Program-made: the position numbers and the translations under genes
Shown here: in pieces, positions 34,566 through 52,253 of the stretch
Layout: every line of letters starts with the position of its first letter
Numbering within the stretch: position 1 is the first letter of the stretch
Notes under the pieces: generated by a model
The model's database searches: none
What the model was told of the DNA's origin: nothing
Seen by the model: the letters and a program-made list of their open reading frames with translations, nothing else
Assembly: GCA_965223545.1 (NCBI GenBank)
Contig: OZ245006.1
Span: 2,112,001-2,176,000, forward strand
Direction of reading: 5' to 3'
Length of the DNA stretch: 64,000 nucleotides
From: Planctomycetota bacterium
GTDB taxonomy: Bacteria; Planctomycetota; UBA1135; UBA2386

Positions 34566-37500
34566 TCAGTGAAAATCGCGGCTGCCGGAGGTCGCCGGCG
34601 CGGCCACCTGCGGCACCCAAATGTGCCGGGCGATCAAGTGCACGACCTTGTCCTGGCACTGCACGACGCCGCGCACGCCGAGGAACGGCTCCGCCTTGAC
34701 CAACACCGCGAAGCGGTCGAAGACCTTCTCCCAGACCACGACGTTGACGAAACCGGTCTCGTCTTCGAGGGTCATGAACACCACCCCCTTGGCGGTGCCC
34801 GGCCGCTGCCGGCAGATGACCAAACCGGCGTAGCGCGCGCGCGCGCCATCGCGCATGGCGTTGAGAGTGACCGCATCCGGCAAGCCTTGGCCGGTGAGCG
34901 CGGCGCGCAGCGGCTCGAGCGGGTGCGCACGGGGACTGTGCTGGCTGGCTCGATAGTCCCAGGCCACGGTCTCGAGCGGATCGAGCTGGGCGAACTCGGG
35001 CCGGGGCTCGCTCGCCACCAACGGCAACCGCCGGCGCGGCTCACGCGCCACTTCGAGCACCTCCCACAGCGCCTGCCGGCGCCCGGGCTCGAGACCATCG
35101 AGCGCTCCGCACTCGGCCAACGCCGACAGCTGGCGCGCGTCGAGCTGCGCGCGCCGCCGCAGATCCGCGACGTCGGCGAACGCCGCCTGCCGCCGCTCCT
35201 CTTCGAGCCGGCGACCCGCTTCTTCGCCCAGCCCTTTCACATAGCGCAACCCCATGCGCAGCGCCCACCGCCAGCGATGCTTGTGCCCCGGCCGCGGCTC
35301 CAACCCACAGTCCCAGTCACTGCGCAACACGCAGACCGGCCGCACCTCGACGCCGTGCCGCTTGGCGTCCTCGACCAACGTCGCTGGCGCGTAGAAGCCC
35401 ATCGGCTGGGAATTGAGCAGCGCGCAGGTGAACACGTCGAGGTGGTGGCAACGCAGCCATGCCGTGGCGTAGGCGATCAACGCGAAGCTCGCCGCGTGGC
35501 TCTCGGGAAAGCCGTACTCACCGAAACCGCGGATCTGCTCGAACACGCGCTCGGCGAACTCCGCCGCGATCCCCTTCTCCCGCATGCGGCCGACCAGTCG
35601 CTCGCGGTGGCGCTCGATGCGGCCGCTGCGACGCCATGCCGCCATGTCTCGCCGCAGCTGATCGGCCTCCCCCGGCGTGTAGTCGGCGGCGACCATCGCC
35701 AGCTTCATCACCTGCTCCTGGAACAGGGGAACCCCCAGCGTCTTCTCCAGCACCGGCACCAGACAGGGGTGCGCGTAGACGACGTCTTCGGTGCCGTGCC
35801 GGCGGCGCAGGTAGGGATGCACCATGTCCCCGGCGATCGGCCCCGGCCGCACGATGCTGATCTCGATCACCAAGTCGTAGAAGTTGACCGGCCGCAGCCG
35901 CGGCAGCATCGCCATCTGCGCCCGACTCTCGATCTGGAACACGCCGACGGTGTCGCCGCGCCCGATCATCCGGTAGGTGTCGCGGTCCTCCTTCGGGATG
36001 CTGGCCAGGTTCGCATCGAGTCCTTCGTACCGGCGCAGCAGCGCGAGCGCCTTGTCGACCATGGTCAGCGCGCCGAGCCCGAGCAGATCGACCTTGAACA
36101 ACCCCAAGGCCTCGAGGTCGTCCTTGTCCCACTGGATCACGGTGCGGTCCTGCATCGCGCCGTTCTCGATCGGCACCAGCCGACTCACCGGCTCGTGGCC
36201 GAGCAAGAAGCCGCCGGGATGGATCGACAAGTGCCGCGGAAAGTCCTGGATCTCCTCGACCAGCGCGGCGAACCACCGGTGCTCGGTCGCGCCCGCATCC
36301 CACCCGGCCTCGGCCAACGACGGCTCCAGCGCTCCGCCCCACCGCGACGACAGCTTGGCCAAGCGGTCGAGGGAGGTCTCCGGCAACCCCAACACCTTGC
36401 CGACATCGCGGATCGCCGACCGCGTCCGGTAGCGGATCACGTTGGCCACCATCGCTGCGTGGGCGCGGCCGTACTTCGCGTACAGCCACTGGATCACCTC
36501 CTCGCGTCGCTCGTGCGCGATGTCCAGGTCGATGTCCGGTGGCTCGTGCCGCTCGCGCGACAAGAATCGCTCGAACAAGAGATCGATGCGCGCCGGATCC
36601 ACCGCGGTGATGCCGAGGCAGTAGCACACGGCCGAGTTGGCCGCCGAGCCACGCCCCTGGCACAGGATGTCGCGTTCTCGACAGAAGGAGACGATCTCCC
36701 ACATGGTCAAGAAATAGCCCGGGTACTCGAGCTCTTCGATCAAGTCGAGCTCGACCTCGATCTGCGCCGCGATCGCGGCCGGCACCGCGTCGCCGTAGCG
36801 CGCGCGCGCGCCGCGCCGCGCCAGCGTGCGCAGGTGTTGCGCCGACGTGGTGCCGTCGGGCAGCGCCTCGGAAGGGTAGCGGTAGCGCAGCTGCTGCAGG
36901 CCGAACGCGCAGCGCGCGCCGATCTCGAGGGTGCGGTGCACGGCGGCCCGGTCGTCGGCGAAGCGCGCCGCGAACGCGCGCGGCGCGACCAACGCGTGCT
37001 CGGCGTTGGCGCGGGTGAGATCGCCGGCGTCGTGCAAGGAGACGCCATGCCGGATGCACGTCAGCACATCCTGCAGCGGCCGGCGCAACGGCGTGTGGTA
37101 GAGCACCTCGATGGCGGCGGCAACCGGCACCGACAGCCGCCGCGCGCGGGTGCGCAGCGCATGCTCGCGCTCGTGGTCGGCGGCACCGGCGTGGCGCGCG
37201 ACAACGGCGTAGAGGCGATCGTCGAACGCCTCGCGCAGCGGCCGCAGCGACCGCGGCTCGGGCGCCAACGCCAGAAGGCCACGGGCGTGGGCGCAGACGT
37301 CCTCGAGCTGCAGCCAGCACTCCCCCTTCGGCGCCCGGCGCCGCCCCAGGGTCAGCAGCTCGCACAGGTTGCCGTAGCCGTCGCGATCGGTCGCCAGCAG
37401 CAACACGCGGCGGCCGCGCGGCAGGTTGACCTCACTGCCCAGCAACAAACGAACGCCGAGCTCGGCGGCGCGCACGTGCGCGCGCGGCGCGCCGTAGAGG

Positions 37501-37634
37501 CCGTCGCGGTCGGTGATCGCCAGCGTGTCGATGCCGTAGGCATGCGCCTGCTCGACCAGCTCTTCGGGGTGGCTGGCTCCGTGCAAGAACGAGAAGTTGG
37601 TCTTGCACCACAGCGGTACGTAGGCGTCGACCAC
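34566..37634 (-). CDS. dnaE2: Error-prone DNA polymerase DnaE2 (ImuC)
   Basis: [48 protein letters not shown]-terminal SRDFH; GTG start inferred. Confidence 0.96.
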
Positions 37635-37640
37635 CGCGAC

Positions 37641-37669
37641 ACGATGGAAGACAAATGTCTTCCACGCAA
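37641..37669 (-). promoter_or_regulatory. dnaE2 promoter with putative LexA box
   Basis: TTGCGT(37669-37664)-N17-CATCGT(37646-37641); palindrome TGGAAGACA-AA-TGTCTTCCA at 37645-37664. Confidence 0.8.
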
Positions 37670-37760
37670 GAACCCTTCCCATCGGCCCGGGCGCAGTGCC
37701 CGACCCGTGCCGGTCACGTTGACAACGCTTGGAGTAGCACATCAAAATCGCCCGGGCCCC

Positions 37761-40700
37761 ATGCCCCAGAACCATTTCCCCGTTCTGGCGACGCTGGCCT
37801 GCCTGCAGCCCGCGCTCGCGCAGAATCCCGCTCCTCGTTTCGAACGCGTCGATCCGCCGTCGGCGGGGATTCACTTCCGCACCGACGTCGCTGCCGACCA
37901 CCCCCTCGCCCGGCTCTACCACGCCGGGTTCTCCGCCGGCGCGGTCGCCATCGGCGACGTCGACGGCGATGGCCGGCCCGACCTGTTCTTCGCCGCCGGC
38001 CCCGAGGACAACGCCCTCTACCGGCAGACCGCTCCGTTCGAGTTCGACGACATCACCGCGCGCTCCGGCGTCGCCGGCGCCGGTCGCTGGAGCGCCGGCG
38101 CCTGTCTGGTGGACATCGACGACGACGGCGATCTCGACCTCTACGTCTGCAACTACGACAGTGAGAACCAGCTGTTCGTCAACGACGGCAGCGGCGTGTT
38201 CGCCGAGCGCGCGGCGGAGTTCGGCGTCGATCTGGTCGACTCCTGCGTCAACGCCACGTTCGGCGACTACGATCGGGACGGCGATCTCGACCTGTACGTC
38301 GTCACCTACCGCTACTACCGGGAAGGCGGCAAGCCTGCCACCGCACCGATCGAGATGGTCGACGGAGTGCCGCACATCGTCGACGACGAGCAGAAGCACT
38401 ATCGCGTCGCCGAGAACCCCAGGCCGCCGGGCTCGGACGAGCACCCCGGCTATCGGCTGCGCACCTACGGCCGCCACGACTACCTGCTGCGCAACGACGG
38501 CGGCCGGTTCACCGACGTCACCGAAGCAGCCGGCGTCCAGCACGAAGGCTTCGGCCTGTCGGCGACGTGGTGGGACTACGACGAGGACGGTTGGCCGGAC
38601 CTGTACGTGTGCAACGACTTCGATGGCCCGGACAAGCTGTTCCGCAACCACGGCGACGGCACCTTCTCCGACGTCCTGGTCGACGTCGTTCCGCACACGA
38701 CCTGGTTCTCGATGGGCTCGGCCGCGGGAGACCTCAACAACGACGGCCACATCGATCTGCTCGCCACCGACATGTCGGCGACGACGCATTTCATGCAGAA
38801 GACCACGATGGGGGCGATGAACGTCGCCAAGCTGAAGTCCGTCGCCGGCCCGCCGCCGCAGTACATGCGCAACACGGTGTACCTCAACACCGGCACCGGC
38901 CGAATGCTGGAAGCCGCCTATCTGCTCGGCTTGGCGGACAGCGACTGGTCGTGGTGCGTCCAGCTGGGTGATCTCGACAACGACGGCTGGACCGACGCGT
39001 TCATCACCAACGGCATGACGCGGAGCTTCAACGACTCCGACTTCGCCTTCCGCGAAGACATGCTGATCGGCCGCACGCACTGGGACGTCTATCGCGACAC
39101 GCCGCCGCGCCGCGAGCAGAACCTGGCGTTCCGCAACACCGGCGACCTCGGTTTCGACGACGCCAGCGCCGAATGGGGACTGGCCCATGTCGGCATCAGC
39201 TTCGGCGCCGCGCAGGGCGACCTCGACGGCGACGGCGATCTCGATCTGGTGGTCGGCAACCTCGACGAGCCGCCGAGCCTCTACCGCAACACCACCGATA
39301 CCGAGAACAAGGACTGGGTCGGGCTGCGGCTGCGGGGCACGCGCAGCAACCGGTTCGGCTTGGGCACGCGCATCGAGATCGAGCACGCCGGAGGCCGGCA
39401 GGTGCGCGTGTTGACGCCGTACATGCTGCACGGCAGCAACCAACCGGTGGTGCACTTCGGACTCGGCAAGGTGGAGGGTCTCGTGCGCGCCCGCTTGTCT
39501 TGGCCGAGCGGCATCGTGCAAGAGCTGGCCGACCTCGGCGTCTGCCAGTTCCACACCGTCGAGGAGGCCGGCGAGCCGGTGGAAGTGGCGCGCGCGGCAG
39601 CGACGCCGTGGCTCGCACCATCGACGGCGTTGGCCGACGTTCGGCACGAAGAAACCGAGTTCGACGATTTCCGCTTGCAGCCGCTGCTGCCCAACCAGCT
39701 CTCGCAGCTGGGCCCGGGGATGGCGTGGGGCGACATCGACGGCGACGGCGACGACGATGTGTACGTCGGCGGCGCCGGCGGACAGGCCGGCCAGCTGCGG
39801 CGCAACCTGGGTGACGGGAAGTTCGAAGCGGTGCGTTGCTTCGAGCTGCGACGCAGCGAGCGCTGCGAAGACATGGGCGCCTTGTTCTTCGACGCCGACA
39901 GCGACGGTGATCAGGACTTGTTCGTCGTCAGCGGCGGCGTCGAGATCCCGCCCGGCCTACCGTTCTTGAGCGACCGCCTCTACATCAACGACGGCACCGG
40001 CAACTTCGCCAGCGCGCCGCGTGGCTCCCTGCCGCGCGCCACCGACAGTGGCAGCGTCGTCTGCGCCGCCGACTTCGACCGCGACGGCGATCTCGACCTG
40101 TTCGTCGGCGGGCGCGTGGTGCGCGGCGAGTACCCGCTCGCCGCCAACAGCCGCTTGCTGCGCAACGACGGCGGCCGCTTCACCGAGGTCGACGGCACGC
40201 CGGAGACCCTGCGGCGCGCCGGGTTGGTGACGTCGGCGCTCTGGTCCGACGTCGACGCCGACGGCTGGTGCGATCTCTTGGTGACGCTGGAGTGGGGCCC
40301 CGTGCGGCTGTTCCGCAACCGCGACGGCACGCTCGCCGACGGCACCAATGAAGCCGGGCTGGCACGACACACCGGCTGGTGGAACGGCATCGCCGGCCGT
40401 GACCTCGACGGTGACGGCGACATCGACTACGTGGTCACCAACAACGGCTACAACACCAAGTACCACGCTTCGAACGAGCATCCAGCGCTGCTCTACTACG
40501 GCGACTTCGAGGGCAACGGGGTCAAGCGACTGGTCGAGGCCGAGTTCGAGCAGGACCACCTATTTCCGGTGCGTGGCCGCAGCTGCTCGACGCATGCGAT
40601 GCCCTCGCTGGGCGAGAAGATCAGCAGCTATCGCGAGTTCGCGCTCGCCAACCTCAGCGAGATCTACACCGAGCAATGTCTCGACGACGCCGTCCGGCTG

Positions 40701-41354
40701 GCGGCGACCACGCTGGCGTCCTCCGTCTTGCGCAACGACGGCGCCGGTCGCTTCACGGTCGAGCCTCTGCCGCGGTTGGCGCAGATCTCGCCCGGGTTCG
40801 GCGTCGTCGTCACCGAGTTGAACGGTGACGTCCACCCCGACGTCGTGTTGGCACAGAACTTCTTCACACCACAGGCCGAGACCGGTCGGTTCGACAGCGG
40901 CCTCGGCCTGGTGCTGCGCGGAACCGAGAGCGGGCTCGCACCGATGTGGCCGGCGGAGAGCGGCCTGTCGGTCCCCGGCGACGCCAAGGCGCTGACCACG
41001 GCCGACCTCGACGGCGATGGCGCCCTGGACCTGGTGATCACTGTCAACGACGGCCCGGTCGTCGCGTTCGCGAGCCGCGCCGGCACAGGCGGCTCGGTGA
41101 CGGTCGACCTGCAGGGCGCCGCCGGCAATCTCGACGCCGCCGGCAGCCGCGTCACTCTGCGGTTGGCAGACGGGCGCACCCAGACCGCCGAGGTCTACGC
41201 CGGCGGTGGCTACTTGTCGCAGTCGTCGAGCACTCTGGCGTTCGGCACCGGCGGCGCCGCGGTGGAGGGCATCGACGTGACGTGGCCCGACGGCAGCCGG
41301 TCGTCGACCGCGGGCGCGGCGGGCGTGCACCACTATCGCATCACGCAGCCCTGA
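37761..41354 (+). CDS. FG-GAP/VCBS repeat protein with two ASPIC/UnbV domains (CRTAC1-like)
   Basis: Signal peptide; many DxDxDGDxDL repeats; VHFGLG and GGGYLSQ...LAFG...WPDG domains. Confidence 0.9.
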
Positions 41355-41366
41355 CGGCCGACGCGC

Positions 41367-42869
41367 TCAATCGACGACTCCCTGCAGGAACCACCGCCGG
41401 CGCCGGCGGTCGTAGTACACCCACAGCACGTCACCGCCGCGGGTCTCGGCAAAGTAGTACTCGCGGTGCTGCTCGCGCCGCCACCAGCCGCCGGAGACGA
41501 CGAACGGTCCCGACAGGCCCTGCACGTCGGGCACCGGCTCGCCACGCCCATGGTCGTCCGCGCTCGCCGGTGCCAGCAGGCGCGGGCGGTCGAGCACCCG
41601 CCGCACCAACCGCGGTGAGATCACTTCTTCCGGCTGCGGAGCGCGCATGCGCTGCAGGGGCTGCCAGGCGAACTTCGCCTCCGGCAAATGTCCGTCGCGC
41701 ACCACGGCGCAGACCACGGCCGCGTCGCCGAGCTCGGCCCGCAGGCGCGCCAGCGCTCGATTGGCCGCCGCCAAATCGCGCCGCCGCGCGGCGGCGAACA
41801 GCTGCCGCTGCACGACGCCCGCCGGCGCGGTCTCGGCCGTCAGCTCGAAGCCCTCGACCTCGGCTTCGAGCTGCACGCTCTCCAGCCGTAGCCGCAACAG
41901 GTCGATGAGCTGCACCTCATCGAGAGTCGGCTCTGCCGGCCGCACCGTTTCGCGGTGCGGCGCGGCGCGTTCCAACCGCAGAGTCAAGTGCAACGCCGCC
42001 ACCGCCTCCCCTCGCCCACTCAAGCCCGCTGCCAGCCGCGCCAGCCGCTGCTTGCAGAGGAACAACAACCCCTGCACATCGAAGCCACTGGCACCTGGCT
42101 CGCACTCCATCTGCTCGCGCAGCGGATCGCGCACCGGCGCGGGCGACAGCGGCGCTCCGCCACCGCACGCCGCGCGGTGCACGCGATCGGCCTCTGCTCC
42201 GAAGCGGGTGCGCAGCGACCCCGCCGGCAACCGACGCAAGCCACCGACATCCTCGACGCCGAGCTGCAGCAACGCATCGCGCAGGCTCGGTTCGATCGCC
42301 GTGCGATGCAGCGGCACGCGGTCGCTGGCCTCGCGCTCGTCGGCCGCGCTACCGCAGACCGTGACGCGCCCCGGCGCACTAGCGCGCGCCAAGGCGTAGG
42401 TCGCGAAGCGATCGAACCCCACCACGGCGGCGGCCCGCAGCTGCAGGTCTGCCAACCGCGACAGTAGCTTCTGCCCCCACCGCGCGAACGCGTTCTCACC
42501 GGAGTCCGACCGACTGCCGTACAGCCGCTCCACGCCGGAAGCGTTCAGCCAGTGGACGCCGGGATCCGCCCCCGGCTCGATCTCCGGCGAGAACGCGCGC
42601 AACGCCCGCAGCAGCTCGGCGGCGGCAGCCTCGATCTCCGCCGCCGGTACCACCCCCGCGCGCAGATCGGCGAGCAGCGACAAGCCTTCGGCGTAGCGCC
42701 GCCCCGGCCAGATCCGCGCGCGGCGCGCGCGTTCGTTGACCCACAGGATCCGGCCCTGCGGCCGGTCCTCGTCGACGACCGCCACCGCGTGCCGCCGCCA
42801 CTCCGGCCGCCGGCGCAGCAAGAGCTGCAACGCCAAGGCCGGGACGTCAACGCAAGCCCAGCGGTCCAC
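41367..42869 (-). CDS. imuB: ImuB, Y-family polymerase-like protein
   Basis: WACVDVPAL, RAFSPEIE, LLQLGV...LRTRFG; C-terminal SGGWW...REYY...LWVYYD...WFLQG. Confidence 0.9.
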   Translation of the reverse strand: MDRWACVDVPALALQLLLRRRPEWRRHAVAVVDEDRPQGRILWVNERARRARIWPGRRYAEGLSLLADLRAGVVPAAEIEAAAAELLRALRAFSPEIEPGADPGVHWLNASGVERLYGSRSDSGENAFARWGQKLLSRLADLQLRAAAVVGFDRFATYALARASAPGRVTVCGSAADEREASDRVPLHRTAIEPSLRDALLQLGVEDVGGLRRLPAGSLRTRFGAEADRVHRAACGGGAPLSPAPVRDPLREQMECEPGASGFDVQGLLFLCKQRLARLAAGLSGRGEAVAALHLTLRLERAAPHRETVRPAEPTLDEVQLIDLLRLRLESVQLEAEVEGFELTAETAPAGVVQRQLFAAARRRDLAAANRALARLRAELGDAAVVCAVVRDGHLPEAKFAWQPLQRMRAPQPEEVISPRLVRRVLDRPRLLAPASADDHGRGEPVPDVQGLSGPFVVSGGWWRREQHREYYFAETRGGDVLWVYYDRRRRRWFLQGVVD

Positions 42870-43506
42870 GCAACACCCGCACGCTTTCCCACGCCATCCC
42901 CCGCCGCTTGTCCTTCTGCGCCTGCACCGACACCGCGAAGCGGCCGGCTGCCAGTCGCACCCGCACCGACCGCACGCGCAGCGAAGCCATCGATCCCCCG
43001 CGCTCGACCGCCGCCCGGCCGGCACCCGCGGTCAGCAACAAGAGCGCGCTGTCGTGCTGCTTGGCCAGGCCGGCCAGCCGCACCTGCGCCGCGAGCGGCA
43101 CCGCGCCTTCGCCGCGCAGACGCGCACCGCGCTGGTCGACGACCGTCAGGCCGAACGCCCCCGAGCGCAGCAGGTGGTCCGCAGACCGCAGCATCGCCGC
43201 CATGCCGTCGGCGCACACGACCGCCAGAGCCTCGAGGTCGACCCCCATGCGCACCACGTCGGGGGGAAAGAAGGTCACCCCTGGCTCCGTCACCCAGGCC
43301 ACCGGCTCACGGCGTTGCTGCGCGTCGCGCACCATCGCCACCGCCGCCGTCGACACGCCCGCCGACGCACCGCCGACCAGCTCGACATAGCGCCCCGCCA
43401 GCTCCGCCAGACACCACGAGGGCGCATCGGACGCCACCGAAGAGGTCGCCCCCCACCACACCCGGCCGGACGCCAGCAGGCCATTCAGCTCCAACGCACT
43501 TGCCAT
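42847..43506 (-). CDS. imuA: ImuA, RecA-like mutasome protein
   Basis: GRYVELVG, FFPPDV..GVDLEAL, LLRSGAFGLTVVD; overlaps the imuB start. Confidence 0.88.
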   Translation of the reverse strand: MASALELNGLLASGRVWWGATSSVASDAPSWCLAELAGRYVELVGGASAGVSTAAVAMVRDAQQRREPVAWVTEPGVTFFPPDVVRMGVDLEALAVVCADGMAAMLRSADHLLRSGAFGLTVVDQRGARLRGEGAVPLAAQVRLAGLAKQHDSALLLLTAGAGRAAVERGGSMASLRVRSVRVRLAAGRFAVSVQAQKDKRRGMAWESVRVLRGPLGLR

Positions 43507-43521
43507 CGGAACCGTTTTAGC

Positions 43522-43533
43522 AGACATTTGTCC
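43522..43533. promoter_or_regulatory. Putative LexA box upstream of imuA
   Basis: AGACA-TT-TGTCC, 15 nt upstream of ATG 43506. Confidence 0.75.
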
Positions 43534-43540
43534 ACCATCA

Positions 43541-43627
43541 GGAGTCGGGCTCGATTTTCTCGCTTCGCCGGCGCGCCGCCGCCTGGCGGCGGCGCGCCGG
43601 CGAAGCGAGAAAATCGAGCCTGACTCC
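43541..43627. repeat. 87-bp near-perfect palindrome (REP/REPIN-like)
   Basis: 43-bp arms (43541-43583, 43585-43627) with one mismatch around a central T. Confidence 0.9.
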
Positions 43628-43642
43628 GTACCGGCCGAGATC

Positions 43643-46600
43643 ATGGCGCCCATGTTCCCAAGGCCCCCCTCGTTACGAGCCTCTCTCTACGGGTTGTCGG
43701 TCGCGTTCGCCGCAGCCGCGCCAACGAGTTCGCAGACCCACACGCTCGACATCGCAGTCCGCACTGGAGCGACGTTCAGCTCGATCGACGCGCAGGTTGC
43801 GGTCAACGATCAGCGCACCATCGCGTTCACCGGCGCGGATGCCAAAGGCAACGGTGTGTTCGCGATGCCCGACCAGGGACAACCAAGAGCCCTCGCGCCA
43901 CAGGCCAGCAGCCGCAACTACTCGGCTGCCGCGATCAACGACACCCTGGTTCCTGAGGTCACCACGCGCGAACGCGCTTCGGGAGCGCCGCCGGTGTACT
44001 TCTTCCGTCGCTGGAGCACTTCCGGGCTGACCGCGACCATCGTCGGGCGTTCGCCCGGAGATTTCGACTCGGCCGTGTCTCGCCTCGACATCAACAACCG
44101 CTCGACGGTCGTTGGAGTCGCACTCGTCGGGGGTCTTTCGTCGACCGCACTCGTCGCCGGATCGGCGTCTCCTCCGACTCGGCTAGCGACCTACTCCGGC
44201 CTGCAGCAGCTGTGGCCGCAGATCTCCGACGACGACGTGGTGGTGGTCACCGATCCGCAGTCGCGGGTCGTCACCTGGCCGTATCCCACGGGGACCGGCG
44301 AAGTCTTTGCCAGCCCAGGGAGCGGCTTCTCCTCGGTCGGAGTGAAGCCCGGCATCAGCGATGACGGGAGCACCGTCGCTTACATCGGCGACAAGGGCGC
44401 GGGCTCGGGGATCTTCATCGGGCTGCGCGGCATGGGAGCCTCCTACCAGTTGCTGGTCGCTGGCGCCGGCACCGAGAACTTCACCGCCATCGACGGCAAC
44501 CACCGCGCAGGAGTCACCGCATCCGGCTCTCTCAGCACGGGCAAGTGGGTCATGCTCGCGTTCCATGGAACGCGCAGCGGCAAGAGCGGGGTGTACTTCG
44601 CACAGCTGCGAGTTCGCGACGTGTCGGGCACGCTGATGGTCGACCGCAAGTCGATCACCGAGATCGCGACGATCAGCACCGCGGTCGGCGGCGCCAACCT
44701 GACCTACGTCGATCTACATCACCCGATCAACGACCGCGGGGACGTCTGCTGTTTCGCCAGCCTCGATGACGGCTCGTCGGCGATCCTGTTGGCCCGCCGC
44801 ACCACGACCGAGATCCGCGACGCCGTGGACTTCGTCGACCCCGCGACGCTGACCGTGTACAGCTCGCCACAGAAGCTCGACGGCGAAGACGGCCAAGAAC
44901 GGATCGGCGTAGCCGCCGATGGCGCTGCACAGCTGTTGTTGCGCGCCACCGTGCCGGGGCCCGGCACGGTGACGTTCAAGTTCGCCGAGCCTAGCGCCAG
45001 CGGGCAAGGCGAGCTGGCTGCGCCCGGCAGTGCGTTCGGCACCGGTGCGGTCACCGCCGCCGCGACGAACGCGAATCCCACCGGCAACTACCGCGGCTAT
45101 TGCCTGTATCGGGGGCCCGCCGACTTCGTCCGGCCGGCGACCAACGACGACGGCGAGGCAACCCGAGCTGTCCCCATCGACGTCGAGTTCCAACCCACGG
45201 CGGGACCGACTACCGGAGACCGCGTCGAGATCGAGCTCTGCCGCCCACCCGTGGTCCTGGCGCACGGGCTGTGGTCCGATGCCGCGACCTGGAAGGGGTC
45301 GTTCGCCGCTCTGCAATCCGGCAGCGAGCCGCGCTTCTTCAGCCATGCAATCGATTACAGCGGCCCACTCGCATCGGCGCCGTTCTCGGCGAACGTGCCG
45401 ACCGTCCGGCTCGGCATTCAGATTGCGCGCAAACTCGCGCACGATGCCGGATTCGCCGCATCCCAGGTCGACTGGGTCGGGCACAGCATGGGCGGTGTGC
45501 TGCCACGCGTCTACTACGAGCGCGCTGCACGCAACGTCGGGGTCGCCTGGAAGAACGCGGCCAACTTCGGCGGCGGTGAGATCCACAAGCTGATCGTGCT
45601 CAACTCGCCGCAGTGGGGCTCACCGTTCGGCAACATGCTGCCCATCGTCACCCAGAATCTCGCGATCAAGGGCTTCGTCCAGGAGTACCTGGAGGGGTAT
45701 GAGGACAATGGAGCCATCGCCAATCTGGCCGAGGGCAGTCCGGCGTATCAATCGATCGGCGCCACTCCGATCCCCACCCACGCACTCGTCGGAGTCGGAG
45801 TGGAGACCCAGATCGCGGGCGCGACGACGACGGTGAATGCTCTGGCCAGGTTTGTGCCACCGCCAACCAGCACGTTTCTGCGGATTGCCGGGCTGTTCGC
45901 GCGCCTGACCAACTCGCTGGTCTACCGCGGCCACCGCCACGACCTGATCGTGCTCGAGAACAGCCAATCCGCGGGCCTCCCCACGAACGCCGTCACGATC
46001 TACAACGGCGGCCTGACCTACCTCCACATGGGCGTCACCAGCAACCAGAGCTACTACGACAAAACCGTCGACCTGTTGCACGCGCCGGTCGCCGGGCCCG
46101 AGTTCGCGCCGCTGCCGGCGCCCAACCTCAATCCCGCGCGTCTGGCGACACCGCCCACCCCCACAGCCACGGCCAACTTGAGCTTCGTGACACCTGCGCT
46201 GGGCGCGACGCTGCAGCCCAACCAATCGGTGACCGTCGAGGTCACACCGACCGGGGGCTTCACCCCGACCTCGGTGGACCTCTTCCTCGGCAGCGACTAC
46301 GCCACCGTGACCTCCCCGCCGTGGCGACACACGTTCACCGTGCCGGCCGAATCGGTGGGCGCGATCGACATCTTGGCGATCGGGGTCGATGCCGGAGGAT
46401 CGCCGGCACTCGCAGGCCCACAGGCGCACGGCATCAACGTCAACGCAACCCTCCAATCAGTGACGGTCGGGCCGCAGGGCACCGCCCTGGTGGAGCCACT
46501 CGAGGAAACCCGGCTCCAAGTCCTCGGCCAGTACTCCGACGGCGTGACGCGCGATCTGACGCGCGCCGCGACCGGCACGACGTACTCGGCCGCGCCAGCC

Positions 46601-47122
46601 GGGATCGTTCGCGTCTCCGCGGATGGACACGTCACCGTGTCCGGCCAAGGCACGGCGACGATCACCGCGTCGAACGCGGGCTTGTCGGGCAACACCGACG
46701 TCGACGTCGCTTTCCCTGCGACGACCGGCTACGGCACGGGAACCGCCGGTGCCGGCGGATTGGTGCCCACCCTCAATGCTCGCGGCGGCCTACCACAACC
46801 CGGCAATCCCGGCTTTCAGCTCGTCTTCGACCGGATCCGCGGCGGCGCACCGGGACAGCTCATCATCGCCGCCCAACCGGCGGACCTGAGCTGGCAGGGT
46901 CTCCGCATCCTGTTCCTACCCATACTGCTGATCAACTTCCCGATGGTCGCGAGCGGGCCGACGGGACAAGCCGGGGCAGGGCAAGTCGTCGTGCCGATCC
47001 CGATCCCCGCACGACCGAGTCTCATCGGCGGCAGCTTCTTCGTGCAGGGCTTCTTCGCCGACGCCGCCGCTGCGCCAGGGCTGTCCCACACGCAAGGACT
47101 CGCCGTCACGATCCAACCCTGA
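43643..47122 (+). CDS. Large secreted multidomain alpha/beta-hydrolase (propeller-like N-terminus, Ig-like domains, C-terminal beta domain)
   Basis: Signal peptide; LAHGLWS, GHSMGG nucleophile elbow, NSPQWGS, HDLIV; GQYSDGVTRDLT Big-2-like motif. Confidence 0.8.
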   Translation: MAPMFPRPPSLRASLYGLSVAFAAAAPTSSQTHTLDIAVRTGATFSSIDAQVAVNDQRTIAFTGADAKGNGVFAMPDQGQPRALAPQASSRNYSAAAINDTLVPEVTTRERASGAPPVYFFRRWSTSGLTATIVGRSPGDFDSAVSRLDINNRSTVVGVALVGGLSSTALVAGSASPPTRLATYSGLQQLWPQISDDDVVVVTDPQSRVVTWPYPTGTGEVFASPGSGFSSVGVKPGISDDGSTVAYIGDKGAGSGIFIGLRGMGASYQLLVAGAGTENFTAIDGNHRAGVTASGSLSTGKWVMLAFHGTRSGKSGVYFAQLRVRDVSGTLMVDRKSITEIATISTAVGGANLTYVDLHHPINDRGDVCCFASLDDGSSAILLARRTTTEIRDAVDFVDPATLTVYSSPQKLDGEDGQERIGVAADGAAQLLLRATVPGPGTVTFKFAEPSASGQGELAAPGSAFGTGAVTAAATNANPTGNYRGYCLYRGPADFVRPATNDDGEATRAVPIDVEFQPTAGPTTGDRVEIELCRPPVVLAHGLWSDAATWKGSFAALQSGSEPRFFSHAIDYSGPLASAPFSANVPTVRLGIQIARKLAHDAGFAASQVDWVGHSMGGVLPRVYYERAARNVGVAWKNAANFGGGEIHKLIVLNSPQWGSPFGNMLPIVTQNLAIKGFVQEYLEGYEDNGAIANLAEGSPAYQSIGATPIPTHALVGVGVETQIAGATTTVNALARFVPPPTSTFLRIAGLFARLTNSLVYRGHRHDLIVLENSQSAGLPTNAVTIYNGGLTYLHMGVTSNQSYYDKTVDLLHAPVAGPEFAPLPAPNLNPARLATPPTPTATANLSFVTPALGATLQPNQSVTVEVTPTGGFTPTSVDLFLGSDYATVTSPPWRHTFTVPAESVGAIDILAIGVDAGGSPALAGPQAHGINVNATLQSVTVGPQGTALVEPLEETRLQVLGQYSDGVTRDLTRAATGTTYSAAPAGIVRVSADGHVTVSGQGTATITASNAGLSGNTDVDVAFPATTGYGTGTAGAGGLVPTLNARGGLPQPGNPGFQLVFDRIRGGAPGQLIIAAQPADLSWQGLRILFLPILLINFPMVASGPTGQAGAGQVVVPIPIPARPSLIGGSFFVQGFFADAAAAPGLSHTQGLAVTIQP

Positions 47123-47176
47123 TGGTACGGAGCCTGGCTCCGTACCTTCGATCCAACCCTGATGGTACGGAGCCTG
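47109..47176 (+). repeat. 40-bp tandem duplication containing a palindrome; second copy interrupted by IS110
   Basis: Unit CGATCCAACCCTGATGGTACGGAGCCTGGCTCCGTACCTT at 47109-47148; second copy 47149-47176 resumes at 48823. Confidence 0.9.
47124..47146. terminator. Hairpin between convergent genes (possible bidirectional terminator or REP; IS110 target)
   Basis: GGTACGGAGC-CTG-GCTCCGTACC, 1 nt after stop 47122; no U-tract. Confidence 0.5.
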
Positions 47177-47185
47177 ACCTGAAAC

Positions 47186-48568
47186 TCACCCAGCCTCGAC
47201 GATCGGTATGAGCTTGTACCCGAGGGATTTAGCGTTCTGTCGGAGTCCGACGATGCGTCGCTGGGTGAAGCGCTCCTCGTAGGCCTTGGCGCCTTCGTCT
47301 ACGTAGTCCTGGCCGAACTTCAGCATGCGGTAGATGAGCAGGGCCAGTTTGCGGGCGATGGCAAAGATGGCGACGTTGCCGTCCTTCGCGCGGGCGATCT
47401 TGCGGAAGTGTGCGCCGAGAGCTGTCTGAGTACGTTGGAGGGACAGGGCGGCCATCCGGAGGACCGTGGCGATCCTGCTGACCGCGATGTTGTTGCGGTG
47501 CTTCTTGATGCGCTTTCCACCCGAGACGGCTTGACGTGGGCACAGGCGTAGCCAGGAGACGAAGTGCTTCTCGGTCGGGAAAGCATCGAGGTCGTAGCCG
47601 ACCTCGGTGAGCACGATCATGGCCGTGCTCGGGCTGATACCGTCGATTCGCGTGAGATCACACCCGACGAGCCGGCAGAGGGCATCGCGAAGCTCCCGGC
47701 CGCCCTTCGTTCGGATGCTCCTCTCCTTGCGGGGGTCTGGATGCTCGGGGACGTCGGCCGTCTTGGCTTCCTCCGGTTGCAGGTCCTCGATCATCGCCAT
47801 CAATCGCTTCTCGACCGACTCGATCTCGTGGTCGGTGTGCTCGAGCATCCGCAAGCCCGAAGCGAGAGTGAAGATGTGCTCCTCGATCCAGGTCCCTTGC
47901 AAGTGATCCGCGAGCTCCTTCTCGGAGATCTTGCAGCGCGGATCACGCAGTCTGGCGAGCGCTCGAGGGTCGCGTTCACCAGCGAGAATCGCGCGGATGA
48001 TCGCGAGGCCGGTCTTGCCGGTGATGTCCGTTACCGCGCGATGGATCGCCACGTTCATCTGATCCAGTGACCGCTGCATCAACTGCGTGTGGCGCGTGCG
48101 CTGCGCGATCAAAGACGCGGCATGGCGTTGCAGGGTCCGCAACGCACAGATGTCCTTCGGAGGCCGGAACGAAGCGCGAATGAGGCCATAGGTGTGTAGC
48201 TTCTGCAGCCAACTGCAATCGCTGGCATCGGACTTGGAGCGGCCCGGCACGTTCTTCACCTCGCGGGCATTCGCGAGGATGACCTCGAAGCCTCTCGACT
48301 CGAGTAGCTCGTAGACGGGAATCCAGTAGACATAGGTGCTCTCCATCGCGACGGATCGCACTCCGAGCTCCTCCAGCCAGTCCGCGAGCGCCTCTAGTTG
48401 GGGCGTCGTCGTTCCGAATCGCTTGATCGGACGACTGCCGTCGGGTGCTGCTGCGCACACCCAGTGCTCGCGGCTGCCGATGTCGATTCCGGCGGCGTTG
48501 GGCTTCACGACTGGTAATACTTCCGCTGCGGGCTTCTTGCCCTTCCTCGTTCTGCCCTTCCGAGCCAT
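47186..48568 (-). CDS. IS110 family transposase/recombinase
   Basis: DEDD RuvC-like motifs AGIDIG, AMEST, KSDASD; C-terminal RIDGIS and SGG; AAGGAGG RBS. Confidence 0.96.
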   Translation of the reverse strand: MARKGRTRKGKKPAAEVLPVVKPNAAGIDIGSREHWVCAAAPDGSRPIKRFGTTTPQLEALADWLEELGVRSVAMESTYVYWIPVYELLESRGFEVILANAREVKNVPGRSKSDASDCSWLQKLHTYGLIRASFRPPKDICALRTLQRHAASLIAQRTRHTQLMQRSLDQMNVAIHRAVTDITGKTGLAIIRAILAGERDPRALARLRDPRCKISEKELADHLQGTWIEEHIFTLASGLRMLEHTDHEIESVEKRLMAMIEDLQPEEAKTADVPEHPDPRKERSIRTKGGRELRDALCRLVGCDLTRIDGISPSTAMIVLTEVGYDLDAFPTEKHFVSWLRLCPRQAVSGGKRIKKHRNNIAVSRIATVLRMAALSLQRTQTALGAHFRKIARAKDGNVAIFAIARKLALLIYRMLKFGQDYVDEGAKAYEERFTQRRIVGLRQNAKSLGYKLIPIVEAG

Positions 48569-48579
48569 ACTTCATCCTC

Positions 48580-48780
48580 CTTGTTGTGGTGGGCCCGGCC
48601 CGAGGCGGCGATCAAACGAATCTGACCTGCGGGAGTGGGCACGGCGACGTGCCCCTCACCAGTGAAGGATGGCCAACTCGGACCCAGACTGGCTCTGGGG
48701 CAAACGTGCTCCAGTGGCTATTGGGGGCGTAGCTGCCGGGCCCCTCACACGTTCCCCGCCCCCTTCCTCAGCGGCTAGTT
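48580..48780 (-). ncRNA. Candidate IS110 bridge RNA (boundaries approximate)
   Basis: Hairpin-rich non-coding end with a 7-nt match to target+core (48689-48695) and an 8-nt match to donor+core (48622-48629). Confidence 0.6.
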
Positions 48781-48833
48781 TCCTGCCCTGAAGGGCCGAC
48801 AAAATCTGTCGGGGCAGGACTGGCTCCGTACCT

Positions 48834-51482
48834 TCAGAAGGGGCGGTAGAAGACGCGGAGCTCCTGGACCGACACGGATTGGGCCAGGCCGCGGTCGAAC
48901 AGGAGCTGGAAGCGCAGGACGGTGGCGTCGGCGGTGTCCAGCACCACTTCGCCGGCCGGGGCAAAGCCGCCGACATAGCGCAGCCATCCGCTCACGGTCG
49001 TCGGGTCGACGTTGCCGCCGGGGTCGTACTGGGCACCTTGGATCCACAGACGCACGGGCTGACCATCGGTCGCCAACACGCCCACAGTGGGATCGTCGCT
49101 GTAGGTGATCGGCACGCCATCGACGATCGCGTCCAGCTCGTAGCGCAAGAACTCCGGCGGGAACAGCTGCTGCGTGCCGATCCAGAGCGACTGCGATGCG
49201 ACGACGGGATCGCGGTCGACGAGCCCGGCGATGCTGGTGCCCGGGCCACTCGCCGGCGTCACGCTCCCGATCAACGACGCCGCGCCGCCGCCGGCGACCT
49301 CGACGCGCACCTGACCGCGACCGCCCGCTCCCCCGCGCGCCTCCATCGTGGCCGCCGGCGGGCCGAACGTCGTGCCCGCCGACCCGCCGGCGACGTCCAA
49401 CCCACCGTCCTGGTCGATGCGTTGGCCCACTTGCAACAGGATGCTGCCGCCCGAGCCGCCGCCGCCGGGCACCGCGTAGGCGTTGGTCGGCGCCAACACG
49501 CCGGCCATGCCGGTGGTGGAACCGCCGGAGGCGTCGATGGCACCCGTATCCGACACGCTCAGATCGCGGCCCGCGCGCACCGCGACCGCGCCGCCCCCGG
49601 CGGCACCACCGCCGCCCGACCGCCAGGAAACCAACGCCGCGATCGAGAAGAACGGGTGGCCGCCCGCGCCGCCGCCGCCCGCCCCGCCGACCACGAAGTG
49701 GTCCAACGAGCTCGACCCCGCCGGCCGCGGCAACAAAGAGAACTCGCGGCCGGCACGCCCGTCGGGGCCGGCTTCGGCCGGGTCGCCGTTGTGGGTCGCG
49801 ACGACCGTGCCGGCCTCTCCGGGCGCCATGAGCGCGCCCCCACCCCCACCCGCCGCGACCTGCGACGAGTACAACCCCGCCACCTGCGTGGTGACCACCG
49901 ACGCGTTGCGTCCATCGGCGGGAAACAACGCAGAACCCCGTCCGCCGCTGCCCGCGGCGCGCGCCGCATAGGCGTGGCCGGCCGACAAGACCGCGTCCCG
50001 CCCCCTCTCGCCGGAGAAGCGCGGCAGGGCGCCGAGTCCGTTGCATCGATCCGCGCCGGCCCCACCGCGTGCGCTCCCGGCCGCCCCACCCGCGGCGCCG
50101 CCATCGGCACCGGGCTGCCCGGTGACGGAGTCGCCGTCCGGCATCGGCCGCCCGACGCCCGACAGGTCCAGCACGCCGTCGATGACGGCGTTGCCGCTGA
50201 CCGAGATGCGCGCCGGGTGGGCTCCCACGAAGCGCACCGTCGTGCCCGCGCCGATGTGGAACTGGGAGAAACGGTAAACGCCATCGGTCACGCGCAGGTC
50301 GGTGCCGGTGCGCGTGCGAACGCGGGAGATCAGCGAGTCCTCGGTGTTCCACTCGTAGACCCCCGGCGCGATTTCGGTGCCGTCGGCCGGGTCGAACACG
50401 CCGTGGATCGCGTCGCCGCCAATGGCACCGGGCAGGGCTTCACCGTTGGCCCAGACCCCGGAAGACGCCCGGTGGTCCAGCTGCAAGTCGTTGTCGAAGG
50501 TCTCGACCAGCGCCACCTCCGCGCGCTGGGAGGGCGCCGTGACGAAGGAGAACACTTTCTCAGCGGCGGGCTTGCCGGACAGATCGACGACGCGCGGCGT
50601 CACCCGGACTTCGACACAGAGCCCACCGGGGACTTCCGAGTCGGGCCGGAAGCTGCCGACCGTCAGCTGACGCAAGGGGTCGTTGAACAGGTCCCAAGTG
50701 CCGGGCACCACGACGGGCGCCGAGGCCGGGTCGCACTGCACACCGCCGCCCGGGGCCGGGCGAGTGTCGCGCACCGTGACCGCCACCGGCTGCGCGCGGT
50801 TGCTCGACGTGATGAACGGAGCCTGGTCGATCACCTCGGAAAACTCGAGCACGATCGGGGTCAGCGGATCGACGCCGGTCGCCAACACCGGCGACAGCAG
50901 CTCGGCACTCGGCGGCTGGCCGTCGAAATCGACGACGCCAAGGGTGACGCTCAACGAGCACCGATAGTCCTCGAGCAACGGATCGCCCGCCGTCGAGCGC
51001 AAGACGCCGACCTGATTGCCGCCACGCACGTAGAGCTGATAGGTCTCCGCCGGACGAAAGCCGAAGAAGCTCTGGGAACCCACGACGCGGATCTCGGGCA
51101 CGAACATCACCGTCGGGCCATTGGTCAGCAACTGACCCACCGGCTCCTCACCGGTCGTCGTGCGCAGCGAAACCGTCGCCGACGACACCGTCGCGGGATC
51201 GACATCCTGACTGAACACCAGCACGATCGGCTGGTTCTGCGCAATCTGGTTGATGCCGCATCCGGCCTGCGTGCAGCCCAGGTTGCACGACTGCAAACAC
51301 AGAGCCGGCCCCGCGGCCGAGGGGGCCGTGCACGACGACTGCAACACCGGTCCAGCACTGCCGCCGCCAGAGCACCCGACACCACCGAGCGCCATCGTGA
51401 CTCCGAGGAGCCCGGCCAAGGAGCGGCCGGCCCGAAGGGCAGGGCGGGACTCGACCACGCGATCAGGGGAGCGCTCGGGCAT
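48834..51482 (-). CDS. Large putative lipoprotein with Ig-like (Big_5/SbsA) domains and Gly-rich repeats; start uncertain
   Basis: Lipobox-like LGGVGC; IVLVFSQDVDPATV and IVLEFSEVID...VVDLSG domains; GGAGGGG / GGGGSGGSI repeats. Confidence 0.75.
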   Translation of the reverse strand: MPERSPDRVVESRPALRAGRSLAGLLGVTMALGGVGCSGGGSAGPVLQSSCTAPSAAGPALCLQSCNLGCTQAGCGINQIAQNQPIVLVFSQDVDPATVSSATVSLRTTTGEEPVGQLLTNGPTVMFVPEIRVVGSQSFFGFRPAETYQLYVRGGNQVGVLRSTAGDPLLEDYRCSLSVTLGVVDFDGQPPSAELLSPVLATGVDPLTPIVLEFSEVIDQAPFITSSNRAQPVAVTVRDTRPAPGGGVQCDPASAPVVVPGTWDLFNDPLRQLTVGSFRPDSEVPGGLCVEVRVTPRVVDLSGKPAAEKVFSFVTAPSQRAEVALVETFDNDLQLDHRASSGVWANGEALPGAIGGDAIHGVFDPADGTEIAPGVYEWNTEDSLISRVRTRTGTDLRVTDGVYRFSQFHIGAGTTVRFVGAHPARISVSGNAVIDGVLDLSGVGRPMPDGDSVTGQPGADGGAAGGAAGSARGGAGADRCNGLGALPRFSGERGRDAVLSAGHAYAARAAGSGGRGSALFPADGRNASVVTTQVAGLYSSQVAAGGGGGALMAPGEAGTVVATHNGDPAEAGPDGRAGREFSLLPRPAGSSSLDHFVVGGAGGGGAGGHPFFSIAALVSWRSGGGGAAGGGAVAVRAGRDLSVSDTGAIDASGGSTTGMAGVLAPTNAYAVPGGGGSGGSILLQVGQRIDQDGGLDVAGGSAGTTFGPPAATMEARGGAGGRGQVRVEVAGGGAASLIGSVTPASGPGTSIAGLVDRDPVVASQSLWIGTQQLFPPEFLRYELDAIVDGVPITYSDDPTVGVLATDGQPVRLWIQGAQYDPGGNVDPTTVSGWLRYVGGFAPAGEVVLDTADATVLRFQLLFDRGLAQSVSVQELRVFYRPF

Positions 51483-51616
51483 GAGAACCTGGGACCGGAT
51501 CGGCACCATCGCCAAGGAGGCGAGCACCGGAGACATTGCTGGAGGACCGGGAAACCCCGATTGTAGTCCCGCTGCGGCCCGATCTGGGGGGGCAACTTCA
51601 GCCCGACCGAGCCCCG

Positions 51617-52216
51617 CTACATCGAACGCCGCAGTTCGACCACGACACCGAGGATCTGAAGCACCGCCGGGTCCGGAACGATCGGCGCGAAGCGGGAGTT
51701 CTCGGGGTGCAACTCCACCCGGCGGCCCCGGCGCCGCAGCGTCTTCACCGTCGCCTCGTCCCCGACCATGGCGACCACCACCTGGCCACTCTGCGCTTCG
51801 GACTGCCGCCGCACCACCACGACGTCACCGTCGAGGATGGACAAGCCGATCATGCTGTCGCCGCGCACTCGCAGGGCGAAGAACGCCTCGCCCGGCAAGC
51901 GCGCATCGATCGCGACAAACCCGTCTGGCGCCTCGATCGCCGCCTGCAGATCGCCAGCCGGCACATCGCCCAAGACCGGCACCAGCCGGGGCGGAACGCC
52001 CGCCGCCCCCGGCAGCCGATAGCCGCGCGCGCCGGCCGCCTGCTCGAGCCGCCCAGCGGCGACCAACGCCGCCAGGTGTTTGCGCGCCGACTCCACCGCG
52101 CGAAAGCCCAATGCCTGCTGTACTTCGCGAACCGTTGGCGGAGCGCCCGCCGCCAAACGGTCGCGGACGTAGGTGAAGACTCTCTCTCGGTTGAGGCCGG
52201 GGGGAGAGTACGCCAT
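51617..52216 (-). CDS. lexA: LexA repressor
   Basis: PPTVREV winged HTH, VPAG cleavage site, GDSM serine, ATVK lysine, LHPEN. Confidence 0.94.
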   Translation of the reverse strand: MAYSPPGLNRERVFTYVRDRLAAGAPPTVREVQQALGFRAVESARKHLAALVAAGRLEQAAGARGYRLPGAAGVPPRLVPVLGDVPAGDLQAAIEAPDGFVAIDARLPGEAFFALRVRGDSMIGLSILDGDVVVVRRQSEAQSGQVVVAMVGDEATVKTLRRRGRRVELHPENSRFAPIVPDPAVLQILGVVVELRRSM

Positions 52217-52224
52217 CGGCCGAG

Positions 52225-52253
52225 AGTATGTCAGACATTTGTCTTCCGGCCAA
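52225..52253 (-). promoter_or_regulatory. lexA promoter with putative LexA box in the spacer
   Basis: TTGGCC(52253-52248)-N17-CATACT(52230-52225); AGACA-TT-TGTCT at 52233-52244. Confidence 0.82.

Follow-up and report, generated by a model that had tools for sequence, protein, structure and literature searches.

LexA is a standard model for the joint change of a repressor and its operator, and its motif in Verrucomicrobia is TGTTC-N4-GAACA. A second LexA dedicated to a mutagenesis cassette is a type of system that is already known: in Pseudomonas putida, LexA2 regulates the operon lexA2-imuA-imuB-imuC beside a separate LexA1 regulon (accessible text of PMC3901139), and the LexA2 box is given as GTAC-N4-GTRC in passages of PMC5544203, including the legend of its S6 figure. 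Excerpts of PMC3901139 also describe imuABC cassettes that are split in Mycobacterium tuberculosis and other bacteria, each piece having an SOS box, and a passage of PMC3323433 mentions organisms in which LexA has no target other than the cassette. For Gram-positive bacteria, the box is quoted as CGAAC-N4-GTTCG, as in Bacillus subtilis, with the form CGAACAAATGTTCG in Staphylococcus aureus (parts of PMC9578287 and PMC11442139). According to parts of PMC8565304, 17 LexA motifs have been counted, and new ones are proposed to arise when a duplicated gene diverges; quoted passages elsewhere report a direct repeat in Balneolaeota (PMC7739468) and GTG-N11-CAC for Francisella FddR (PMC13148647). Here we analyse a 64,000-nt stretch of contig OZ245006.1 from a Planctomycetota bacterium (the whole stretch is called the window; the genome is 8.1 Mb, 91% complete), in which lexA, imuA, imuB and dnaE2 (imuC) stand in operon order on one strand, broken up by unrelated genes and an IS110 insertion sequence (IS). 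With high probability, the palindrome found upstream of lexA, imuA and dnaE2 is the operator of an accessory LexA (51617-52216) that would have its own gene, imuA-imuB and dnaE2 as its only targets of repression.

The predicted operators are the following; their ranks refer to a matrix built from orthologous loci without the window's genome.

52232..52245 (12-bp core 52233-52244), minus strand: predicted lexA operator, sense strand AAGACAAATGTCTG, rank 5 genome-wide
43522..43533, minus strand: predicted imuA operator, sense strand GGACAAATGTCT, genome rank 2
37645..37664 (core 37649-37660), minus strand: predicted dnaE2 operator within a 20-bp palindrome, genome rank 3

Read directly, the palindromes are AGACAAATGTCT (37649-37660), AGACATTTGTCC (43522-43533) and AGACATTTGTCT (52233-52244), all on the minus strand, and they lie 14 nt upstream of the GTG of dnaE2 (37634), 15 nt upstream of the ATG of imuA (43506) and 16 nt upstream of the ATG of lexA (52216), which confirms the three sites and distances of the original prediction. 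Its extension of the dnaE2 palindrome to 20 bp (37645-37664) also holds, with one central mismatch pair, as does its remark that the motif lies at no other intergenic site of the window: a scan allowing up to one mismatch gave six strand-matches, all at the three sites, against 0.25 expected, and none of 100 shuffles reached six. A motif frequent at random would have refuted the prediction; in the whole genome, AGACAWWTGTCY occurs only three times, exactly at the three sites. The shorter pattern GACAWWTGTC occurs four times genome-wide, and no evident repair gene is found among the open reading frames (ORFs) printed around the fourth copy (C1:7071259).

Conservation of the motif before orthologous lexA genes was examined with an alignment of 13 LexA proteins of the window's own family as the query. 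From the best 80 genome loci and the best 80 metagenome loci, all of the former and the top 17 of the latter were kept; the remaining 63 metagenome loci (L164-L226, at most 47% identity) were dropped before all counts because they represent other LexA types. The 80 named loci cover at least 12 bacterial phyla and one archaeal label, with 11 lacking a phylum, and imuA is located downstream of lexA in 87 of the 97 loci retained. The archaeal label belongs to a record named Nitrosopumilus (L125) that carries a clade lexA with imuA-imuB and is probably a binning error. When all 4-bp dyads were counted without a seed motif, AGAC-N4-GTCT ranked first, being present in 44 of the 95 lexA upstream regions with enough upstream DNA as opposed to 0/97 coding and 1/83 far-upstream windows, so the expected conservation is borne out. 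The iterated matrix, which is circular by construction, exceeds 12 bits in 86/95 loci and yields the full motif CA(G/T)AC-AWWT-GT(C/A)TG, with frequencies of 0.94 for A at the third position and 0.97 for G/T at the next. Conservation is equally strong in the left half, CA(G/T)AC, and in the right half, and the motif is kept across at least 12 phyla while the flanks diverge. In the 8.1 Mb of the window's genome, the orthologue matrix ranks the window sites 2, 3 and 5; rank 4 is inside a gene, and five sites exceed 14 bits compared with two in the reversed genome. A pattern count in 28 family genomes gave 4 of 28, the pattern being too strict to discriminate.

Among 68 orthologues, a TTG precedes the 18-nt site by 5-8 nt in 46, and a hexamer starting with TA or TT follows it in 58, so the box would fill the spacer between the -35 and -10 elements. 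From this conservation of the flanks, the following promoters are predicted in the window.

52225..52253, minus strand: predicted lexA promoter, with -35 TTGGCC at 52248-52253, a 17-bp spacer filled by the box, and TG plus -10 CATACT at 52225-52230, 8 nt before the ATG
43514..43519, minus strand: predicted imuA promoter, TG plus -10 TAAAAC, 7 nt before the ATG, with a weak -35
37664..37669 and 37641..37646, minus strand: predicted dnaE2 promoter, -35 TTGCGT and -10 CATCGT respectively, 6 nt before the GTG

The window sites align as those of the orthologues do. Because the start codons are only 6-8 nt past the -10 hexamer, this arrangement suggests leaderless or near-leaderless messages.

Where the operon is broken, the box tends to reappear at the separated dnaE2. 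In a wider non-redundant set, dnaE2 genes separated from imuB by more than 400 nt carry the box in 4/5 cases, as opposed to 0/43 for dnaE2 within the operon. Within the family, separated dnaE2 genes score above 10 bits in 6/8 cases (10.5-19.4 bits) versus 0/4 in-operon copies, with only 1.7% of random windows from family loci exceeding 8 bits; two of four imuA genes that are separated or independently preceded also score above 10 bits, and four family genomes with a whole operon have the box before lexA only. The two box-less separated dnaE2 genes of the family are informative: no cassette-type LexA was found in one of the genomes (G023, 89% complete), and the LexA copy of the other (G031) has neither the Ala-Gly site nor the catalytic Lys. 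In the promoters of these two genes (L049, L053), GAAC-N7-TAAC occupies the spacer and -10, which may reflect capture by another regulator; this site is absent before seven SOS genes of the window's genome. As no more than 15 kb of DNA holds all three window sites, which might have a common origin, a chance pattern or a functionless relic of local promoter duplication might be proposed. We give this explanation practically no credit, as it has been refuted by the shuffle statistics (0.25 matches expected), by the retention of the motif in at least 12 phyla with diverging flanks and by its tracking of operon breaks.

The LexA encoded in the window is an accessory one that travels with the cassette. 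The genome has a second lexA (C1:4118278), whose product is 43% identical to the window LexA and has a different helix, and dnaE2 was found in 12 of the 13 same-family genomes with a window-type LexA (E <1e-39) versus 1 of 13 without it, a comparison limited by the kinship of the genomes and by the incompleteness of the drafts; in total, 34 of 36 genomes of the family have a LexA match. Among 26 genomes of other groups, a second LexA above cut-off is present in 22.

The original prediction had treated the palindrome as an SOS box to be sought before recA, uvr, ssb and ruv, and a genome-wide role was not borne out. The window's genome contains recA. Neither this gene nor the second lexA, dinB, uvrA, ssb, ruvA or recN has a site scoring above 1.6 bits within 400 nt (box before 0/7), versus 12.7-15.5 bits at the three sites. 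A general SOS box, read by the window LexA or by the housekeeping LexA (C1:4118278), would explain why three classic SOS targets carry it; in addition, the window-type LexA is the sole LexA above cut-off in 4/26 genomes of other groups, and two of the 24 recA regions in such genomes score 14.7 bits (G063) and 10.0 bits (G080). The other 22, including that of G062, where the clade LexA is the sole LexA, score 6.3 bits or less (so that 1/24 exceeds 12 bits), most of the 26 genomes have only 1-5 matches to the box 14-mer versus 0-5 for a control pattern, and G023 and G031 possess a housekeeping LexA yet have no box before dnaE2. We therefore regard a general SOS box as very improbable and reject a global regulon on the genome ranking, the 1-5 matches per genome and the lack of the box at other SOS genes. 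Because those genes are box-less and matches per genome are few, the predicted regulon is the cassette itself.

A search for the motif of the housekeeping LexA, made with three known patterns upstream of seven SOS genes, yielded one weak match. The sites before recA in G063 and G080 (L249, L251) are TACACATTTGTTTG-like and lie within the promoter spacer; they could be the box of the other LexA or reflect a spread of the regulon. Of 20 extra box matches examined among those listed in other genomes, one precedes a separated dnaE2, five are at IS ends in G074 and one is before an antitoxin gene, the rest having no repair gene nearby. The sequence CACACAAATGTATG, which differs from the box by one mismatch, is present 31 times in G074 (e.g., L263:1001-1014, L264:1458-1471); the five copies examined lie at the ends of a repeated element, one of them beside a transposase-like ORF, which may represent LexA control of an IS or a coincidence. 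As a separate observation on SOS genes, two uvrA matches fall in one 1933-codon open frame (G000:C1:7544092-7549731), i.e., a tandem fused UvrA.

Further evidence comes from the recognition helix. Residues 40, 42, 43 and 46 of the window LexA align with S39, N41, A42 and E45 of Escherichia coli LexA, which are named as DNA contacts in a passage of PMC11442139. In a helix-box set of 91 proteins with less than 90% identity, 76 of them with a site, G is found in both half-sites with Ala40 in 44/61 cases and with Ser40 in 0/15 (Fisher's p = 2e-7, kinship ignored). Glu42 is accompanied by G in both half-sites in 16/17 cases, and Gly/Ala42 by CAC boxes in 3/3, at two places on the tree. The 13 family proteins were rejected as one clade (p-AU 0.011, from a quick tree and a test run after the tree had been inspected). 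Together with the scattered phyla, this suggests rather than proves lateral spread of this LexA.

The original prediction that this LexA binds the palindrome is supported, at the level of sequence, by conservation in orthologues, by the box following split dnaE2 genes and by box letters that track the helix, while its frame GACA-N2-TGTC is not. The site is better read as CAGAC-N4-GTCTG, and in this N4 frame its kinship with GAAC-N4-GTTC and with the Pseudomonas LexA2 box GTAC-N4-GTRC becomes visible, as a variant of either with two bases changed.

The palindrome might instead be read by a different protein (for example an Xre-type antitoxin, some other helix-turn-helix factor or an alternative sigma factor), with LexA merely travelling along. 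In favour of this, the motif's right edge also supplies TG and the initial T of an extended -10 element; the left half CA(G/T)AC, however, is equally conserved, the box changes with the LexA helix, and its AC-N4-GT spacing is that of known LexA boxes. The Xre-like helix-turn-helix domain PF20432 was not found in the window's genome (91% complete), and the cassette neighbourhoods were not surveyed for other conserved regulators. On balance, we consider another reader improbable. In G068 (L270:1301-1330), CAGACAAATGTCTA and a second partial copy are located before an Xre/MbcA/ParS antitoxin gene.

Several observations weigh against a LexA operator confined to the cassette. That look-alike site before the G068 antitoxin gene would suit another reader. 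With 19.3 bits, the top genomic match of the orthologue matrix (rank 1) overlaps a start codon, that of a peroxiredoxin-like ORF, probably by chance. The box is lacking before lexA in seven of the 12 family orthologues aligned besides that of the window (eight if G008 is added by eye), and autoregulation is accordingly not universal. Separated imuA genes of the wider set exceed 10 bits in only 1/4 cases (in-operon imuA, 2/64), and imuA of G030 in the family scores only 1.6 bits. A strict sigma-70 scan detects none of the three promoters predicted in the window. Finally, a kinship-aware test of the helix-box association gave p = 1, with low power, and on a tree built without the helix columns Ser40 shows 10 changes, with 2 independent pairs on well-supported branches. 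With these points included, the box is still very likely a LexA operator that is limited to the mutagenesis cassette and widespread.

Under this proposal, a LexA dimer would bind two CAGAC half-sites through helix 3 and, situated in the -35/-10 spacer, would block RNA polymerase at the three predicted promoters. In the alignment to E. coli LexA, Ala87-Gly88, Ser121 and Lys158 of the window LexA correspond to A84-G85, S119 and K156, so that the cleavage site and the Ser-Lys dyad are intact (the roles of these E. coli residues are given in a passage of PMC11442139). By analogy with E. coli LexA and P. putida LexA2, DNA damage would lead to RecA filaments that trigger cleavage at Ala87-Gly88 by Ser121 and Lys158, after which ImuA, ImuB and DnaE2 would be made together. 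An ancestral lexA-imuA-imuB-dnaE2 operon appears to have been split by unrelated genes, and each new 5' end would have gained or kept a box. A broader version, for which we see even chances, is that this LexA lineage, together with an operator of its own, CA(G/T)AC-N4-GT(C/A)TG, forms a self-contained mutator module that is spreading sideways over at least 12 phyla; it would be insulated from the host SOS response, re-install the box before dnaE2 at operon breaks, link the Gram-positive and LexA2 boxes through a two-residue code (Ala/Ser40 and Glu/Gln/Gly42 versus G/T/C) and be undescribed.

Compared with the P. putida LexA2 system, as far as the cited passages describe it, the likeness lies in a second LexA beside the housekeeping one, in the same four-gene operon that it heads and in the AC-N4-GT spacing. 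However, the main box of the window clade is CAGAC/CATAC rather than GTAC, the clade ImuA is RecA-like, and the window cassette is split and has three boxes; moreover, the clade is spread over at least 12 phyla, its bacteria being mostly uncultured. The Gram-positive box, as quoted, is likewise a 14-bp palindrome that shares the ACAAATGT core and the outer C/G with the clade box, yet the clade half-site has AG for GA, and Gram-positive LexA proteins run a global regulon that includes recA and uvr. Split imuABC cassettes, in the accessible descriptions, similarly have a box for each separated piece, but there the global LexA controls the pieces, whereas the window cassette is likely controlled by a dedicated LexA. 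The other reported motifs were, in the passages available, also found as conserved motifs before repressor and translesion polymerase genes; none quoted in these passages matches the clade box, and they do not cover the full list of 17.

These comparisons bear on whether the LexA operator represents a new specificity. The clade might also read GTAC-N4-GTRC or GAAC-N4-GTTC, or the motif might already be on record, which would be compatible with the proposed operator and would affect its novelty only. At two loci (L073, L078) the site is CGTAC-ATTT-GTACG, in agreement with the consensus quoted for Pseudomonas LexA2 from PMC5544203, and the S. aureus box CGAACAAATGTTCG differs from the clade box CAGACAAATGTCTG, in the quoted form, only in the order of two bases per half-site. 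At the window sites, on the other hand, the sequence is AGAC/GGAC-N4-GTCT and not GTAC-N4-GTRC, GTAC-N4-GTAC occurs in only 2/95 orthologue loci, and the GAAC half-site of the Gram-positive box is absent; GAAC-N4-GTTC is present 114 times in the window's genome and never at the three promoters. The strong matrix preferences for A at the third position and G/T at the next also speak against it. A literature search found no paper giving the motif, with RegPrecise, CollecTF, figure logos and most subscription papers outside its reach, and none of the listed motif-string matches was about LexA by title. Two plasmid records examined for a Pseudomonas/Xanthomonas LexA2 contained no lexA2 cassette, and among 301 Gammaproteobacteria scanned with a pattern there was a single match, with no lexA ORF listed beside it. 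The lack of a new specificity is thus rather unlikely, though a reasonable minority view, and the original description of the motif as undescribed stands for the searchable literature, absence from print not being established.

The genes and other features of the split cassette are as follows.

51617..52216, minus strand: accessory lexA, 199 aa, helix FRAVESARKHL (TIGR00498; alignment to E. coli LexA)
42847..43506, minus strand: imuA (RecA-like), 219 aa, below the NCBIfam ImuA cut-off
41367..42854, minus strand: imuB, about 495 aa, which overlaps the stop of imuA and lacks its own box (weak IMS match)
34566..37634, minus strand: dnaE2 (imuC), error-prone polymerase, 1022 aa (PRK05672)
37761..41354, plus strand: gene for an FG-GAP / ASPIC-UnbV protein between imuB and dnaE2, start approximate
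43643..51536: unrelated DNA between lexA and imuA, with a 1159-aa ORF (plus strand, 43643-47122), an IS110 transposase (minus strand, 47186-48568) and a 900-aa Big_5 protein (minus strand, 48834-51536)
43541..43627: hairpin with 43-nt arms that overlaps the predicted imuA -35 region and belongs to a dispersed palindromic repeat

The window LexA scores 146.9 bits with TIGR00498 (cut-off 110.95), and both the winged-helix PF01726 and the peptidase S24 PF00717 domains are present above family cut-off. DnaE2 reaches 1329 bits with PRK05672 (cut-off 939), and the RecA-like ImuA only 25 bits against the NCBIfam ImuA cut-off of 150; the closest named homologues are labelled Planctomycetota. The hairpin arms are 98% complementary, and at least 91 strand-matches of the repeat exist in the genome (40 of 330 candidates scored). 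An exact 28-nt direct repeat, 40 nt apart and with short inverted repeats, is located at 47109-47176, at the end of the IS110 element. The Big_5 gene lies on the lexA strand, begins 80 nt past the stop of lexA and may be transcribed together with it.

In this clade, about 75 helix-box pairs occur naturally, with graded box variants (CAGAC, CATAC, CACAC and CGTAC) at 50-70% protein identity, so that a specificity code becomes testable with one or two substitutions. Thiocystis violacea DSM 208 is a cultured carrier of the system, in which both lexA and a separated dnaE2 are preceded by a box. The box lets the wiring of inducible mutagenesis be predicted in Planctomycetota, Acidobacteriota and other little-studied phyla.

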